Source of the DNA: Patescibacteria group bacterium
Lineage (GTDB): Bacteria > Patescibacteriota > Minisyncoccia > GWC2-36-17 > WO2-46-25
DNA: 36,257 bases
Reading direction: 5' to 3'
Assembly: GCA_038062295.1 (NCBI GenBank)
Contig: JBBTXL010000045.1
Location: forward strand, 1-36,257
Under the pieces are notes generated by a model. It saw only the letters and a list, made by a program, of their open reading frames with translations. It was not told the DNA's origin and searched no databases. The stretch's first letter is position 1; every line of letters starts with the position of its first letter. The position numbers and the translations under genes are program-made. Below, one piece after another: positions 12,288-28,025 of the stretch.

Positions 12288-13043
12288 ATGATTACGCACA
12301 AAGACCTGGAACGGTTCGGGTTGTCGGAAAAAGAAGCGCGGGTGTATCTCGCATCGCTGGAATTGGGGCCGGCAACGGCTGCGCAGATCGCGCAGAAAGC
12401 GGGCGTGAACCGCGCGACCACGTATGTGGAAATAGAATCGCTCATGAAGATGGGGCTTGTCAGCACCCATGAAAAGAACAAAAAGACATTGTTTACGGCC
12501 GAGGACCCGGAAGCGTTGAAGCGCATTCTCCAGCGGCGTCAGGAACGGTTCCAGCGTGCGCATCAGGCACTCAATGAACTGTTGCCAGAACTTTCCAATC
12601 TCTATCACTATGCCGGAGAAAAACCAAAAGTGCGATTTTTTGAAGGAAAAGAGGGATTGCTTACCATGCAGGAAGATTTTTTGAAAACGAAAGACAAAAT
12701 GATAGAGGGTCTCTACAATGTTGATAACTATCATAAAGTGTTTTCACGAACCGAACGCGAACAGTATTATGCAGTACGGTTAAAGAAAAAAATTCACGGG
12801 AGAACGCTCTACAACCGTGAAGCAGGTCCTTTTGACAGTCCGGACAAAATTACCGAAGACCGTTTTGTGTCCACAGATAAATTCAATTTTTCAAGCGATA
12901 TTACTATTTATGACAGTAAAGTTGCGATTGCCTCGCTCCGGGGAAAATTGATGGGGGTCATTATTGAGAATGAAGAAATTGCAAACACGGTGCGAGCTCT
13001 CTTTAGGTTGGCGTGGGATGCCGCAGAAAAATATCAGAAATAG
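12288..13043 (+). CDS. TrmB-family winged-helix transcriptional regulator (251 aa), paralog 1
   Basis: N-terminus 'LERFGLSEKEARVYLASLELGPATAAQIAQKAGVNRATTYVEIESLMKMGLV' is a TrmB-type HTH. Alignable over its length with the ORF at 22676-23431. Confidence 0.8.
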   Translation: MITHKDLERFGLSEKEARVYLASLELGPATAAQIAQKAGVNRATTYVEIESLMKMGLVSTHEKNKKTLFTAEDPEALKRILQRRQERFQRAHQALNELLPELSNLYHYAGEKPKVRFFEGKEGLLTMQEDFLKTKDKMIEGLYNVDNYHKVFSRTEREQYYAVRLKKKIHGRTLYNREAGPFDSPDKITEDRFVSTDKFNFSSDITIYDSKVAIASLRGKLMGVIIENEEIANTVRALFRLAWDAAEKYQK

Positions 13044-13483: not shown

Positions 13484-13511
13484 ATTATACTCAAATACAG
13501 TTTTTTGTCAA
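13484..13511 (-). promoter_or_regulatory. Consensus sigma70 promoter firing leftward
   Basis: Minus strand reads TTGACA (rc of 13506-13511), 16-nt spacer, TATAAT (rc of 13484-13489). Confidence 0.7.
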
Positions 13512-13644
13512 TAGGCAATAACAATTTCTAAATATTTTTCTTTAAGTCAACTGTTGTCATAAATTATCAACACTATATATTATCAATAAAATAGCTTAAA
13601 TACTGTATTATTTAGCAATTATTGTTATTACTTGTTTAAAACTA

Positions 13645-13672
13645 TTGACAAAATAATAAAAATGAGTATAAT
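13645..13672 (+). promoter_or_regulatory. Consensus sigma70 promoter firing rightward into the 13.8-19.1 kb gene string
   Basis: TTGACA (13645-13650), 16-nt spacer, TATAAT (13667-13672), inside a visibly AT-rich tract. Confidence 0.75.
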
Positions 13673-13789: not shown

Positions 13790-14098
13790 ATGAGCGACAC
13801 CCGGCAGGAGCTTTACTCCTGCAGTGTCACCGGCTGCGGCACCACAGGCCCTGCGGACCGTATGTACTCTCTTGATAAGAGAGCTACAAGCGGAAAGCGG
13901 GTAGTGGTATGCCCCCCGTGCGGCAAGCTGGCCTGGAAAGAGGGAATTCGGACATACAAACTGTCTGACACCCTCCGGTACGAGGAACAGCAAGCCATGA
14001 AGCGCGGTTTCTTCCAGCCGTTCACGCGGTCTCTCGCGAAAGCGGAGGCCCGAAAGGACGGCAACGGCAAGAAACCCAAGCTTCACGCGGTTGGCTAG
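13790..14098 (+). CDS. Small zinc-ribbon protein (102 aa), uncharacterised
   Basis: Perfect SD AAAGGAGGTGA (13775-13785), 4 nt before the ATG. 'CSVTGC...(25)...CPPCG' four-Cys ribbon and a basic C-terminus. Confidence 0.7.
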   Translation: MSDTRQELYSCSVTGCGTTGPADRMYSLDKRATSGKRVVVCPPCGKLAWKEGIRTYKLSDTLRYEEQQAMKRGFFQPFTRSLAKAEARKDGNGKKPKLHAVG

Positions 14099-14201
14099 CG
14101 CAGACCGGACGCGTCAATCTCCGGCCAAGGCACCGGAGTTGCCCAAAAACCCTTGGGTGTCAAAGCATGGGTGCGATAGGGTTCTGCAAAATTTCGCAGG
14201 A

Positions 14202-14278
14202 CTCCCTTCCAGAGCTTGTCTTTACGACAGCGTCCCAGAGACGAAAAGCCACACACTTAGGCTGTCTCTGGAAGGGAG
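14202..14278 (+). repeat. SD-mimic stem-loop, copy A
   Basis: ctcccttccagag (14202-14214) is perfectly complementary over 13 bp to ctctggaagggag (14266-14278). Confidence 0.8.
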
Positions 14279-14326
14279 ATTGGCTCCCGCACAGTTCTTT
14301 CAAACCCGAGAGGAGGTGGTTACCGA

Positions 14327-14416
14327 ATGGTAAAACAGATCGTTGTCGCGGCTCCAAAGTGCCAGGCCGCCGGGTGGCATAAAAACTGCCCGTTCTGTCA
14401 GGCTCGCAAGAGCTGA
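14327..14416 (+). CDS. 29-aa Cys/His mini-protein MVKQIVVAAPKCQAAGWHKNCPFCQARKS (below the ORF-track cutoff)
   Basis: SD GAGGAGGTGG (14310-14319), 7 nt before ATG 14327. C12..H18..C21-x2-C24 knuckle. Stop TGA 14414-14416. Confidence 0.45.
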   Translation: MVKQIVVAAPKCQAAGWHKNCPFCQARKS

Positions 14417-14493
14417 CGCTGGCCATGAGGGGACGCACATGTGCGCCAAGGAGTTCCCCTCACTCAATAGAGCCAAGCAAAAAAATCGTTTGG

Positions 14494-14537
14494 CTCCCTT
14501 TCAGAGGCTTGAAACGATTCAAATTTCTGAAAGGGAG
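14494..14537 (+). repeat. SD-mimic stem-loop, copy B
   Basis: ctccctttcaga (14494-14505) is perfectly complementary over 12 bp to tctgaaagggag (14526-14537). Inner hairpin ttgaa-acga-ttcaa. Confidence 0.8.
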
Positions 14538-14633
14538 AAATCCCGAAGTTCTTTGAAACAACAGCAGCGCAGGGCTGCGAACGGGACGACGCCGTGTTTC
14601 GGTCGAGCCATCAACCTTCAAAGGAGGTGAATC

Positions 14634-15149
14634 ATGAGACAAGTCGGCTTCGTTACCTACAATTCCGTAGGGGACGGAGTGGCTGACGGCTGGCATAAAG
14701 CCGAAGATCGGCAAGCGTACGTGCTGCAAAACAGCAAAGGTGAACGCTTCGCAGTCGATGGAGTCAACGGAGGGGAGTTTGAAACCCTCTTTGAACTCTT
14801 CGAAGGCAAGTTTAACCGCGCTGATGGCAAGTACGCAGACGGCGTGAGTGACGAGATCAACGCCATCTGGAGGAAACTCCAGGCGGTTGTGAATGATCTT
14901 GATCACCTCGTGGTCTACGTCGGTTCGGCCGGGTCAGAGCGCGCCATTGAGCTCGCGAGGCAACTGCCTGCGTCCAAAGTCACCTTTGTCGGCTGTGATT
15001 GCGGGCTTCCCTTCAAGGAAGCTCTCATCCAGAAGGCTGGGTTGACCAAGGCGGGGCGGGTGCTGTGTGAGTGCGGTGGACGCCGGACCATGAAAGCGAT
15101 CTTTGATCGCTTCATGAAAACCGGTGCGCTTCTGCCTGCCAATGCCTAA
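14634..15149 (+). CDS. Hypothetical protein (171 aa) with paired C-x-C-G motifs
   Basis: Perfect SD AAAGGAGGTGA (14620-14630). The C-terminal half looks alpha/beta ('LVVYVGSAGSERAIELARQL') and carries 'GCDCG' and 'LCECGG'. Confidence 0.75.
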   Translation: MRQVGFVTYNSVGDGVADGWHKAEDRQAYVLQNSKGERFAVDGVNGGEFETLFELFEGKFNRADGKYADGVSDEINAIWRKLQAVVNDLDHLVVYVGSAGSERAIELARQLPASKVTFVGCDCGLPFKEALIQKAGLTKAGRVLCECGGRRTMKAIFDRFMKTGALLPANA

Positions 15150-15336
15150 GCTGCTCTTCCATCCTCATACTGCCATGTAAAATTGCTCCTGCGACATGGC
15201 GCAGGCGATGAGACTGTCGCGATGACAGGCTCCTCGTGAGCGGGGATCCGCGATAAAAAGAGAGAAAGATGGATTACTCTCCATAAATCCGGGCGAGACC
15301 GCAGGTGTTATTTGTGGGAAGGAAACAAAACCCTTC

Positions 15337-15370
15337 CCGCCTTTCTTGAGACGCGAAAGAGATTTGGCGG
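15337..15370 (+). repeat. SD-mimic stem-loop, copy C (degenerate)
   Basis: ccgcc/ggcgg outer stem with ctttc (15341-15345) / gaaag (15355-15359) inner stem. Followed by the agttcttttcaaac motif at 15385. Confidence 0.5.
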
Positions 15371-15704
15371 TTCAAGTTGAGGAAAGTTCTTTTCAAACAT
15401 TCAGATTCTGGAAGCGGCCCGCTCCAGAGACGGAACACCTTATCTGCTTAGGATGTTCTTAACCTTGGAAAGTATAGCCAAGGTTAGCCCGTGATGAGGG
15501 TGTCAAGCAGAAGGGTACAAGATGCCGGCATGCATCTTGTGGCGAGGAGCCAAGGGGAGCTGAACACAGGTGCACCTGTGTCCCTAACGAGATAGGGCAA
15601 CTTCTTCCTCTCGCGGCCGCACCGTAGGGAGGTTTATAGAGGTCGGATCCCCTCTAAGAAGGCCTGTCTCATTGCTAAATGGGACTACGAGAAAAAACTC
15701 GTAG

Positions 15705-15750
15705 TCCCGCTTTCAGAGATCTTGAGGAAACTCGAGATTTGCGAAGGGGA
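15705..15750 (+). repeat. SD-mimic stem-loop, copy D
   Basis: tcccgctttc...gcgaagggga imperfect outer stem. Inner hairpin atcttgag-gaaa-ctcgagat (15719-15738). Shares 'ctttcagag..cttg' with copies A, B and F. Confidence 0.6.
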
Positions 15751-15878
15751 ATTAGCGTAGGGCTGATTCCAAAGTTCTTTTAAATCAAACCGTAAAGGAG
15801 GTGGGGCACACTCCACCAAAAAAGGCGCACGCGGCTACGACCGCACTCGCCACAAAGAACATATGAGGAGGCACAACG

Positions 15879-15911
15879 ATGCATAAACTTACCTCCTCTC
15901 CCTTTCAGTAA
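15879..15911 (+). CDS. Micro-ORF MHKLTSSPFQ (10 aa), putative leader peptide
   Basis: SD GAGGAGG (15865-15871), 7 nt before the ATG. Its last codons form the left arm of stem-loop E. Confidence 0.3.
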   Translation: MHKLTSSPFQ

Positions 15912-15947
15912 CCATTTGAGACAAAGAGAGAGTGGTTACCGAAAGGG
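15900..15947 (+). repeat. SD-mimic stem-loop, copy E
   Basis: ccctttcagtaacca (15900-15914) versus tggttaccgaaaggg (15933-15947): 14 of 15 paired. Confidence 0.7.
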
Positions 15948-15992
15948 AAAAAAGACAGTACATTTAAAAACCAAATAACAGGAGGATGAACC

Positions 15993-16412
15993 GTGGTAAA
16001 AAAGATCGTGGTTGTGGAAGATAACCCCGTCGAGCTACAAAAGGCGTGCGATTTGGTTGCGGCGCGCGGCATGATGCCGCTTCCGTGCGCAACCCACAAG
16101 GATGCGATTGAAAGCATTCTCAGCTATCAACCGAAAGGATTGGTTGGTATTCTTACCGATTTGCACTTCCCGATCGCGGAAGGCAAAAACCCGGAAGGCG
16201 CGTGCGGTTTGCATGTGGTGCACCTTGCGCTCACGATGGGTATGCCGGTCGCTATTTGTTCCGATATCGACCATCACTACGCCACATGGGCAAACGATCT
16301 TGTGCGCGATGTTGAAAAGGCAACCGGCAGAAAAGTTGCCGGATTTATTCAAGACAGCAAAAATTGGGAGAAAGCGCTTGCGCTACTCCTCGACGAAAAG
16401 GAGGAACGGTGA
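15993..16412 (+). CDS. Stand-alone CheY-like receiver (REC) domain protein (139 aa)
   Basis: GTG start 6 nt after AGGAGGA. 'KIVVVEDNP' (acidic pair), 'ILTDLHFP' (phospho-acceptor Asp), 'VAICSD' (conserved Ser/Thr). Confidence 0.8.
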   Translation: MVKKIVVVEDNPVELQKACDLVAARGMMPLPCATHKDAIESILSYQPKGLVGILTDLHFPIAEGKNPEGACGLHVVHLALTMGMPVAICSDIDHHYATWANDLVRDVEKATGRKVAGFIQDSKNWEKALALLLDEKEER

Positions 16413-16768: not shown

Positions 16769-16769
16769 T

Positions 16770-16813
16770 AACAGTTCGACAAGCTCACCGAAACAGTTCG
16801 ATACACTCACTGT
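16770..16813 (+). repeat. Tandem 22-bp direct repeat (2 units)
   Basis: aacagttcgacaagctcaccga / aacagttcgatacactcactgt: 17 of 22 identical. The first 10 nt and the 'ctcac' block are conserved. Confidence 0.75.
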
Positions 16814-16830
16814 AAAAAGGAGGTGATGGG

Positions 16831-16869
16831 GTGAAGTTCTTCTATCCCGTTGGATTTGTTCAGGAGTAG
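16831..16869 (+). CDS. Micro-ORF MKFFYPVGFVQE (12 aa)
   Basis: GTG start 7 nt after the GGAGG core of perfect SD AAAGGAGGTGA (16816-16826). Peptide-level paralog of the micro-ORF at 23647-23679. Confidence 0.4.
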   Translation: MKFFYPVGFVQE

Positions 16870-17288
16870 GGAGCCTCTGTCATGAAGGGGAACACGGGGT
16901 CCGGCGGTGCTCAACCGTCGGGAAATCGGGACCAGAGAGATTGACCAGGACGGAGTCCTGGTGTGATCACTGGAAAAACCCGTTGTTTCTTTCCAGATTC
17001 CGTCATGCTGCCTGGGGGGTGTCCCTATATGCGGGACGAAGCCCGTACCAGCTTTTGCGCTCTCCCTTGAGAAAGGAGAGGTCGGCAACGGTGGCCCGTG
17101 TGTTCCAAACTTCGGTTTGGACGACGGCGGCAGTATGGCGCGAGGTGCAGACGTATCGGAGGAACCTCGTGAGAAGAATCTGGCGCGGCCGGTGAAGTGC
17201 AACGCACTGCGGAGCTTGGGGGCGGAACAACCCGCGGTGAGCCGGTAAGGAAACTACCCTTCATGCATGCTCGGTTTTATCAACCACT
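16870..17288 (+). ncRNA. Candidate ~0.4-kb structured RNA / leader
   Basis: 9-bp long-range helix catgaaggg (16881-16889) / cccttcatg (17257-17265). Local stems at 16944-16962, 17060-17080 and 17105-17120 (the last with a UUCG loop). ORFs listed here look like composition artefacts. Confidence 0.35.
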
Positions 17289-17309
17289 ATGAACGAAAGG
17301 AGGCACACA

Positions 17310-17630: not shown

Positions 17631-17699
17631 ATCCCTCTTTCAGAGCTTGCCAGAACTATATTTTTGTGGTATACTGTTCTGACAAGTTGCGAAAGGGAT
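17631..17699 (+). repeat. SD-mimic stem-loop, copy F (carries a promoter in its loop)
   Basis: atccctctttc...gcgaaagggat outer stem. Inner stem cttgccagaac (17646-17656) / gttctgacaag (17676-17686) with one mismatch. Confidence 0.6.
17647..17675 (+). promoter_or_regulatory. Sigma70-type promoter with extended -10
   Basis: TTGCCA, 17-nt spacer, TGg-TATACT. Shares the 13-mer tggtatactgttc with the promoter at 12272-12285. Confidence 0.6.
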
Positions 17700-23646: not shown

Positions 23647-23679
23647 GTGAAAAACAGCTACCCCACCGGGTTCTTATAA
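23647..23679 (+). CDS. Micro-ORF MKNSYPTGFL (10 aa)
   Basis: GTG start after AGAGGAGGT (23635-23643). Shares M-K-x-x-Y-P-x-G-F with the micro-ORF at 16831, using different codons. Confidence 0.4.
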   Translation: MKNSYPTGFL

Positions 23680-27523: not shown

Positions 27524-27742
27524 GTGGAAAACAAGTTCTTTCAGACAGGCGAGGATCCGAAAGCAGATCGGTATATCAATGCCATTAAGGAGATCATGCG
27601 GTCTATTGGGGTGACCATAACATCGGTCTCGTTCAACCCTAAAACAAAGCAAGCGGAAATCAACGGTATTGTATTCCAAGTTCCGTTCCCGCTTTCGGAA
27701 ATCAAAGAAAAACTTCTCAAAAAGGGAGGGGAAAAAGAATAA
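27524..27742 (+). CDS. Hypothetical small protein (72 aa)
   Basis: GTG 27524 follows TAGGAGGTGA (27511-27520), which includes the previous gene's stop. Ends at terminator 27742-27768. Confidence 0.55.
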   Translation: MENKFFQTGEDPKADRYINAIKEIMRSIGVTITSVSFNPKTKQAEINGIVFQVPFPLSEIKEKLLKKGGEKE

Positions 27743-27771
27743 CAGCGGACTCGCAAAGAGTCCGCTGTTTT
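27742..27771. terminator. Bidirectional intrinsic terminator between convergent genes
   Basis: Perfect 11-bp stem acagcggactc / gagtccgctgt with a gcaaa loop. T-runs on both strands. Confidence 0.85.
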
Positions 27772-28025
27772 CAGTGACGTTTGTTCACGGGGGCGTGTTC
27801 CCGTATAATGCCGATATAATCAGTGCAATTTTTGCACTCTGCGGTGTGTTCCGCAATTTTCTCGCTCACTTCGCTGATCTTTACTTTTGAATAGAGCGAG
27901 AACTCATCCCCGTTTAAGTACGCCATCATTATCTCGGAAGGCGGACACCCGCCTCGCCGTTTGGAATCTTCCGCAGACTTCGTGCTGAAAAAAAATCCTC
28001 CGTATATCGGATCTTTTATTTTCAA
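27771..28025 (-). CDS. Hypothetical protein (84 aa)
   Basis: TTG start preceded on the minus strand by caaGGGAGGtttgtc. Ends at the shared terminator. Confidence 0.6.
   Translation of the reverse strand: MKIKDPIYGGFFFSTKSAEDSKRRGGCPPSEIMMAYLNGDEFSLYSKVKISEVSEKIAEHTAECKNCTDYIGIIREHAPVNKRH

Follow-up and report, generated by a model that had tools for sequence, protein, structure and literature searches.

The genomes of Patescibacteria are tiny and contain little non-coding DNA, and to our knowledge almost nothing has been learned about regulation at the RNA level in this group. Structured RNA between or behind genes is well described elsewhere. In E. coli operons (REP/BIME elements) and among the early genes of phage T7, intercistronic stem-loops set mRNA stability or serve RNase III, and enterobacterial small RNAs (sRNAs) such as CpxQ and SroC derive from 3' untranslated regions (3'UTRs) or end in a terminator. 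Here we describe a structured gap of 843 nucleotides (nt; 0.84 kb, positions 15150-15992) between the genes of two small proteins, p171 and p139, in a + strand operon of a groundwater member of the Patescibacteria (candidate phyla radiation, CPR). The window (contig JBBTXL010000045.1, positions 1 to 36,257; assembly GCA_038062295.1) corresponds to part of a 150-kb contig of the groundwater metagenome-assembled genome (MAG) GCA_964361915.1, and pieces of it recur identically in Hainich aquifer samples (0.1-µm filter). A preliminary description made from the letters alone had taken the gap for a candidate large structured RNA or a composite regulatory leader. We find that it is a patchwork, in which a ~135-nt RNA that we call motif A is accompanied by three leader cassettes and unconserved hairpin filler, with more than a third of the interval unconserved. 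Motif A is a covarying, conserved structured RNA, previously undescribed and absent from Rfam.

Results

Conserved modules in a variable interval

For comparison we retrieved 55 loci, using the flanking proteins and a DNA pattern. Blastn finds just two pieces of the interval elsewhere: 15171-15302, which is nearly all of motif A (79-88% identity), and a hairpin at 15898-15948, of a family that we call B (86-88%); a weaker match joins 15679-15725 to locus L043. At ~69% identity, the adjoining coding sequence is less well conserved in nucleotides than either motif A or the B hairpin. What lies between them varies. The two pieces are 600 nt apart in the window and 34 nt apart in L047, where an 83-amino-acid (aa) gene and then a p139 homolog follow, and in L034 genes of 95 and 76 aa stand between them. 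For the nearest relative (L044, p171 88% identical at the protein level), the alignment covers motif A, a GC-rich hairpin termed T, a B hairpin and the box AGTTCTTT and then collapses, on a contig that continues only ~60 nt past this point. To the middle of the interval (15400-15680) none of the loci showed similarity, either in nucleotides or in translation.

Because only modules recur, relatives hold genes in this place and the middle has no homolog, the interval is not a single conserved RNA. The single large non-coding RNA (ncRNA) of ~0.8 kb envisaged in the preliminary description reduces to the ~135 nt of motif A (15171-15304) and the T and B hairpin modules: a conserved, covarying RNA does lie inside the interval, and the interval as one RNA does not stand. 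The composite regulatory leader offered as its alternative comes close to the cassette anatomy found. That description had counted intact protein genes in homologs, which would make the interval a decayed gene, against its own proposal. Relatives do carry intact genes of 76-95 aa in the equivalent interval, before the p139 homolog; residual protein similarity, the sign of a pseudogene, was not found.

Other collections added little. A p171 profile search of genome contigs gave 18 loci in which the coding part alone aligned, with L011 (Lloydbacteria) carrying a shortened motif A, and a pattern scan of metagenomes gave seven loci, one of which (L050) is a chance match within a coding region. Neither a scan of viral sequences for motif A nor searches of phage and plasmid collections returned a match.

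Motif A covaries and follows the stop codons of unrelated genes

Motif A (15171-15304, + strand) is delimited by blastn, a covariance model and covariation, and we propose seven helical pairings for it. Its invariant 5' strand GCCAUGU (15172-15178) precedes hairpin P1' (15189-15204, with 15189-15193 paired to 15200-15204), whose loop ACAUGG possibly pairs back with that strand, as a pseudoknot or as an alternative fold. Helix P2a (15205-15210 with 15232-15237) encloses P2 (15214-15228). The motif further contains the junction GAGCGGGGA, a putative GC helix that would close the 3' domain, P3 (15247-15250 with 15290-15293), P4 (15260-15264 with 15277-15281) with its conserved loop AAGAUGGAUUA, and the 3' tail GCGAGACCGC, all on the + strand. 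Between P3 and the GC helix, GGA (15244-15246) faces CGAGA (15294-15298) in an invariant internal loop that, by eye, we take to be writable as a kink-turn; the kink-turn-compatible nucleotides are invariant in all variants.

The motif A set comprises 11 distinct full-length variants, 10 of which entered alignment A5, plus the shortened one in L011, which lies directly after a p171 homolog. A5 was made with MAFFT from sequence only, the structure not being used. In this alignment 90.1% of the cells at proposed pairs are paired, a share that falls to 35-46% once partners are shifted by 1-3 columns. Both sides change in 12 of 37 pairs; shuffles gave 5.0 +/- 1.6, and none of 500 reached the observed value. 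At least two such pairs fall in each of P1', P2, P2a, P3 and P4, while the GCCAUGU/ACAUGG pseudoknot and the closing GC helix show no informative variation among the variants. Covariance model R1 finds one copy of the motif in the window, on the + strand only (127 bits, E 4e-34). Covariation among homologs, the absence of which would have counted against the proposal of the preliminary description, is present in motif A. The variants differ by indels of 1-2 nt, which exclude a conserved reading frame over the motif, and one loop holds a hairpin insertion. In some public contigs an open reading frame (ORF) is called over motif A (103 aa in L037); we rejected it on the same ground, its frame being broken in the window and by the variant indels.

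The position of the motif is as constant as its neighbors are changeable. Motif A begins 7-21 nt past the stop codon of the upstream gene, or overlaps it, and these upstream genes are mutually unrelated (p171, a CheY-like protein and hypothetical proteins of 103 to 204 aa). The genes downstream vary nearly from locus to locus, from Maf to small membrane proteins and a lipoprotein-like ORF, with none in the window. As the motif begins at the upstream stop codon, there is no room for a promoter before it. We also considered the invariant TGCCATGTAAAA as a promoter and rejected it, since the last base of the would-be -10 element is T or C (TAAAAT versus TAAAAC) and a -35 element is not conserved. 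Judged from its sequence, the architecture is more like that of a message with a folded RNA at its 3' terminus.

A T hairpin follows every variant at a distance of ~10 nt. It is always GC-rich, and its stem differs in sequence each time and covaries (GGGAAGG, GGCUACA, GGCAAG, GGCUUGCG, GGCAAGAAA and CGCAGAAC). Pairing between these variable stems and the invariant 3' tail of motif A is impossible, so that a classical riboswitch platform is not evident. The T hairpins are followed by pyrimidine- or U-rich runs, which range from UCCCUUUC to UUUUUCUUU and hold 3-8 U in 9 nt. In the window this hairpin is T1 (15316-15338, +), with a GC-rich stem of 7-9 base pairs (bp) and a local folding energy of -15.1 kcal/mol, followed by GCCUUUCUU; by its sequence it may act as a terminator or as a stabilizer of the 3' end. 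T1 is missing from the listing of the terminator scanner because its 9-nt loop exceeds the scanner's limit.

T and B hairpins form a recurring leader cassette

The second conserved piece belongs to a module that precedes most genes of the operon. Its parts usually occur in this order: a variable GC-rich T hairpin, a B hairpin, a box, sometimes a small extra hairpin, a Shine-Dalgarno sequence of the form AUCAACC...AAAGGAGGUG, and a start codon. B hairpins have the form CCCUUUCAGA...UCUGAAAGGG, with arms CCCUUUCAGA(G/A)AUUU and AAAUUUCUGAAAGGG around a variable loop, and the box that follows them has the consensus AGUUCUUU(N)AAA. The order T, B, box, Shine-Dalgarno and start codon was seen in L045, L047, L034, L025 and L011; in the window the cassette precedes a 29-aa ORF at 14327, p171, p139 and p77, and it also precedes genes of the related loci. 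The B-arm word occurs eight times in the window against 0.54 expected, nearly always within 14.2-17.7 kb, and the box pattern six times against 0.84 expected, with four copies in 14293-15784. Boxes likewise lie downstream of hairpins in L011, L034, L047 and L044.

Read with this template, the interval contains three cassettes on the + strand, two of which have no gene behind them. Cassette 1 consists of T1, hairpin B1 (15340-15382) and a AGUUCUUU box (15385-15396), after which no gene follows. B1 is a weak, degenerate copy of the family, seen in a local fold, collinear with the B hairpins of L044 and L045 and similar to L051 2826-2892. Cassette 2 opens with T2 (15681-15708), a perfect 11-bp hairpin with an A6 loop (-20.9 kcal/mol) that resembles L043 1197-1241. 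It continues with B2 (15705-15750), a degenerate copy (CCCGCUUUCAGAG...GCGAAGGGG) that is seen in a local fold and aligns with the B hairpins, with an extra 9-bp hairpin (15748-15770) and with the box AGUUCUUUUAAA (15773-15784). A Shine-Dalgarno sequence, AAAGGAGGUG at 15794-15803, ends it; this site is partly paired in a hairpin at 15800-15817, and the stretch 15773-15803, box and Shine-Dalgarno included, holds repeat families D1, D9 and D12. This site (AAAGGAGGTG) is the one that the preliminary description had called an orphan, and indeed neither ATG nor GTG nor TTG occurs 4-12 nt downstream of it; the template makes it the end of a geneless cassette. Cassette 3 comprises T3 (15865-15898; GAGGAGG...CCUCCUC, from the stem search and local fold), B3 (15899-15948) and the Shine-Dalgarno sequence of p139 at 15981. 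B3 is the best-conserved B hairpin of the interval, 86-88% identical to L034 5485-5535, L025 5362-5408, L047 559-609 and L046 115-165, with a local folding energy of -24.8 kcal/mol. The T stems of the window span -15 to -21 kcal/mol. A micro-ORF inside T3 (MHKLTSSPFQ, 10 codons, 15880-15912) has an ideal Shine-Dalgarno sequence and was set aside, as it is not conserved in relatives.

The B family extends well beyond the window. We collected 26 instances, with up to six in 11 kb (L055) and four in 5 kb (L043), and found copies in contigs of Moraniibacteria and Yanofskybacteria as well. The first 15 positions of the 26 instances pair in 97% of cells, with compensatory types at positions 6, 7, 9 and 14, and G.U cells outnumber A.C cells by 32 to 6, although the pairing filter by which the instances were picked biases upwards the 97% and part of the G.U excess. 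The excess of G.U over A.C favors selection on the sense-strand RNA. The B hairpin with its box was also tried as a promoter and discarded, the -35/-10 spacing being inconsistent.

Further cassette parts lie on the + strand outside the interval. In the preceding gap (14202-14558) there are B hairpins at 14202-14278 and 14494-14537 and boxes at 14293-14304 and 14547-14558, and a B-family hairpin (17631-17699) lies upstream of p77. The loop of the latter contains a promoter-like TTGCCA-17-TATACT with an upstream TG (17647-17675, +). The 29-codon ORF of the preceding gap (14327-14416, +; MVKQIVVAAPKCQAAGWHKNCPFCQARKS) is unannotated; a strong Shine-Dalgarno sequence and a T/B/box cassette of its own precede it. 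The peptide begins similarly to p139 (N-terminus MVKKIVVV), and the DNA at 14309-14339 is repeated at 15925-15955 (81%).

An ORF-free, strongly folded stretch

Every feature of the preliminary description was found where it had been placed. No ORF of at least 60 aa exists in 15150-15904, the longest being one of 54 aa on the - strand. The stem searches recovered the hairpins at 15316-15338 (7 bp), 15460-15486 (9 bp), 15517-15540 (9 bp) and 15681-15708 (11 bp) and the 18-nt palindrome at 15564-15581, and also returned a 16-bp stem at 15899-15948; inspection of the sequence and of local folds showed those at 15582-15597 and 15637-15656 as well as two overlapping alternatives, 15172-15200 and 15188-15205. 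Several of these lie in the lineage-specific filler (15400-15680, +), whose unrelated perfect hairpins we place at 15459-15487, 15516-15541, 15564-15581, 15582-15597, 15607-15632 and 15637-15656.

The interval holds four perfect stems of at least 9 bp, against 0.04 +/- 0.19 in 300 dinucleotide shuffles, whereas stems of at least 8 bp number at most two in every other 843-nt tile of the window. Its folding energy is -340.9 kcal/mol, with z = -14.65 for the + strand and z = -9.2 for the - strand. These results bear out a non-coding interval that resembles structured RNA of the sense strand. In a 200-nt sliding scan, the structured zone spans ~13800-16200, wider than the interval first reported, and takes in the gap at 14099-14633. 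That gap is ORF-poor and made of the same hairpin cassettes, with z down to -7. A second ORF-poor gap (16769-17309, before p98) folds near the shuffled expectation (z -1.2 to -1.6). Strong folding also marks the intergenic zone 27600-28000 (z -6.3 and -4.2), which has a clean terminator at ~27743-27775, with the word AGTTCTTTCAGA at 27534.

The preliminary description could name no RNA family for the interval, and none matched. Rfam 15 at gathering thresholds gave 0 matches in the whole window, its models including OLE, GOLLD, ROOL, HEARO, raiA, group I and II introns, riboswitch classes and ribozymes. At E <= 10, the region 14900-16200 matched generic microRNA-precursor hairpin models and the sR53 small nucleolar RNA model (12 bits, E 7.5). 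These matches score far below gathering, and none touches motif A. Five related loci gave nothing relevant in Rfam either.

A small-gene operon behind a TrmB-family regulator

The gene for a TrmB-family regulator (12288-13043) heads the gene order. It is followed by a promoter region, p102 (a zinc-ribbon protein), a 535-nt gap, p171, the 843-nt gap, p139, p119, a 541-nt gap, p98, p77, p379 and an ABC exporter. The promoter (TTGACA-16-TATAAT, 13645-13672, +) matches the consensus at 12 of 12 positions and lies in an AT-rich region. A second, divergent sigma-70-type promoter with the same 12/12 match (TTGACA-16-TATAAT, 13511-13484, -) shares with it a 150-nt AT-rich stretch (13484-13672) between the TrmB gene and p102.

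Upstream of the interval, p171 (14634-15149, +) belongs to a conserved Patescibacteria family with 95 homologs and four invariant cysteines (alignment A1), namely C121, C123, C145 and C147, plus a GSxGSE motif. In distant Patescibacteria its homologs often lie near a TrmB-family gene (loci L007-L024). Others come from MAGs under the labels Obscuribacterales and Nanoarchaeota, a hint of mis-binning or transfer. An AlphaFold model of p171 is confident (predicted local distance difference test, pLDDT, 88), yet no significant neighbor was found in the PDB. Downstream, p139 (15993-16412, +; Shine-Dalgarno AGGAGG, 15981-15986) is a conserved Patescibacteria protein with 37 homologs, which in relatives are preceded by genes of 68-83 aa. 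CheY-fold, p139-like paralogs recur within the clusters (L034 10051-10467 and L055 9936-10391), and in L055 one of them stands directly upstream of motif A. All homologs of the flanking genes come from Patescibacteria/CPR, including Uhrbacteria, Lloydbacteria, Moraniibacteria and Peregrinibacteria.

Two tiny ORFs of the + strand, 16831-16869 (MKFFYPVGFVQE) and 23647-23679 (MKNSYPTGFL), have strong Shine-Dalgarno sites and share K-x-x-Y-P-x-G-F. The former heads the 541-nt gap before p98 and the latter the leader of a NUDIX gene, both leaders being long and structured, and the two ORFs may encode leader peptides.

Discussion

On balance, we think that the 843-nt spacer is probably a composite intercistronic region of a Patescibacteria-specific small-gene operon that follows a TrmB-family regulator, built from motif A, three leader cassettes and ~280 nt of filler. 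Its anatomy, conservation, covariation, strand and modularity are read directly from the sequences compared above. For transcription, termination, processing and any binding partner we infer a course of events. The consensus promoter at 13645-13672 would drive sense-strand transcription of the operon. Within the transcript, T hairpins could serve as weak or leaky terminators, as protectors of 3' ends, or as both, and the long B stems (15-19 bp) could determine processing or stability between cistrons. Motif A would be retained on the 3' end of the p171 message, or released from it, as a stable folded RNA of ~165-190 nt, probably bound by protein; the invariant junction nucleotides make a bound protein likelier than a terminator coupling of the riboswitch kind.

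Several observations weigh against this account. Only about 12 variants of motif A are at hand, most of them from a few aquifer sites, so the covariation cells are not independent events. The U tracts of the T hairpins are poor (3-5 U in most variants), and termination may be weak or absent for that reason. The middle 280 nt are strongly structured even though they are unconserved, and the small proteins of the operon have no Pfam or PADLOC assignment. The B figures carry the bias of the pairing filter noted above; moreover, the sequence conservation of the B arms and the perfect Watson-Crick palindromes formed by several hairpins would also fit recognition at the DNA level.

What the geneless parts are, and at which level the hairpins act, can be read in other ways. 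It is a distinct possibility, though an unlikely one, that small-gene cassettes were lost here through decay or deletion of their genes and that 15400-15680 and 15804-15864 are what is left of them, with hairpins that serve no function of their own. The 76-95 aa genes in the equivalent interval of relatives, the locus-by-locus variation of gene content between conserved modules, and two complete leader cassettes that lack an ORF, one of them with a perfect Shine-Dalgarno sequence, would all follow from such losses. However, tblastn with the neighboring proteins and tblastx with 15305-15900 gave nothing better than E ~0.07, those matches falling on the hairpin modules, and four perfect stems of at least 9 bp within 280 nt are unexpected under neutral decay. 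The mosaic of genes between the same hairpins across lineages and the empty cassettes could instead reflect DNA-level boundaries, with small genes being shuffled by recombination at the B and possibly the T hairpins, in loose analogy to integron attC sites. Arm sequences conserved across distant Patescibacteria and repeats between spacers, such as 14309-14339 with 15925-15955, point the same way. We nevertheless find this improbable: the proteins scanned in the window and among the called genes of the fetched loci include no recombinase or integrase (the Pfam scans covered part of the window ORFs), the B arms CCCTTTCAGA/TCTGAAAGGG are without attC core sites (RYYYAAC ... GTTRRRY), and the sense-strand excess of G.U over A.C indicates selection on RNA.

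Other explanations concern the RNA itself. Motif A might be a riboswitch or ligand-controlled attenuator, in which a small molecule or protein decides between a stop at T1 and read-through to p139 and beyond. Its complex conserved fold, invariant junction nucleotides and the terminator-like hairpin that always lies within ~10 nt are compatible with this, as are two conserved, mutually exclusive pairings (GCCAUGU/ACAUGGC and CUGCG/CGCAG, with compensatory changes in the second). What makes it rather unlikely is that a conserved anti-terminator is impossible, the T stems being variable, the aptamer tail invariant and a ~10-nt linker lying between them; in addition, the downstream genes differ in nearly every locus and form no coherent set, and the motif sits at gene 3' ends rather than behind a promoter. 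One structured ncRNA of ~0.8 kb like OLE, GOLLD or ROOL, as first proposed, would account for the very low folding energy (z = -14.65), for the missing ORF and for a predicted fold that closes over a long range, from 15160 to 15988. This is very improbable in our view, given that no large-RNA family of Rfam matches even at E <= 10, conservation is confined to 135 nt and short hairpins, the pieces lie 34 nt apart in L047 with protein genes after them, L044 (88% identity) diverges past the first cassette, and the z-score arises from independent local hairpins. TIGR (Tas-associated) systems occur in Patescibacteria, and some have stem-loop units with conserved stems and variable loops (PMC12045711), which makes the host group a plausible one for a TIGR-type or other guide-RNA array. 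Such an array is scarcely conceivable here, where tandem repeats are absent, genes separate the hairpins, a box C/D-like pattern was not seen and no Nop-domain hit was obtained among the operon proteins scanned.

A bolder reading goes beyond the composite intercistronic region that we prefer, and we hold it to be decidedly unlikely. Motif A would then represent a new functional RNA class specific to Patescibacteria, be it a kink-turn-type ribonucleoprotein component, a ribozyme or a riboswitch, and the T/B cassettes would be the boundaries of a hitherto unrecognized modular small-gene system that exchanges genes between conserved RNA/DNA hairpins in the TrmB-linked operons of episymbionts.

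The locus devotes more than 2 kb to structured spacers. The analysis corrects the idea of a new giant RNA and delimits in its place two reusable elements absent from Rfam, a ~135-nt covarying motif and a widespread hairpin/leader cassette. Both mark a recurrent type of operon, in which only uncharacterized proteins stand beside a TrmB-family regulator, and the covariance model and sequence signatures are handles for finding such operons, and for examining signals of mRNA processing or termination, in an uncultivated lineage.

Among known systems, the large ncRNAs (OLE, GOLLD, ROOL, HEARO and raiA) are, like the interval, long, ORF-free, strongly folded and set within a gene cluster; the interval differs in matching no covariance model, in its short conserved modules and in its variable length. 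Motif A has more in common with the orphan RNA motifs of comparative genomics (of the Breaker/Weinberg type, including riboswitch candidates with terminators), as it is ~135 nt long, has several covarying helices and an invariant junction, is followed by a terminator-like hairpin and occurs in one lineage. Unlike these, it belongs to no Rfam 15 family, follows variable genes on their 3' side and does not lie in the 5'UTR of a coherent regulon, and has no platform that overlaps the terminator. Its internal loop between P3 and the GC helix can be read as a kink-turn with a 3-nt bulge and tandem G.A and A.G pairs, but the non-canonical helix needs one bulged G and no L7Ae-like protein was found in the operon. 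With 3'UTR-derived or terminator-ended sRNAs motif A shares a start after a stop codon, the absence of a promoter of its own and a stem-loop end; sRNAs that act by seed pairing are typically far less structured and less conserved. REP/BIME elements and the RNase III sites of T7, in turn, find a parallel in the T and B hairpins, which recur between the cistrons of one operon on the sense strand, the B stems being 15-19 bp long. In contrast to those elements, the B arms keep their sequence in distantly related Patescibacteria, go with a single type of operon and are paired with a variable hairpin and a AGUUCUUU box.

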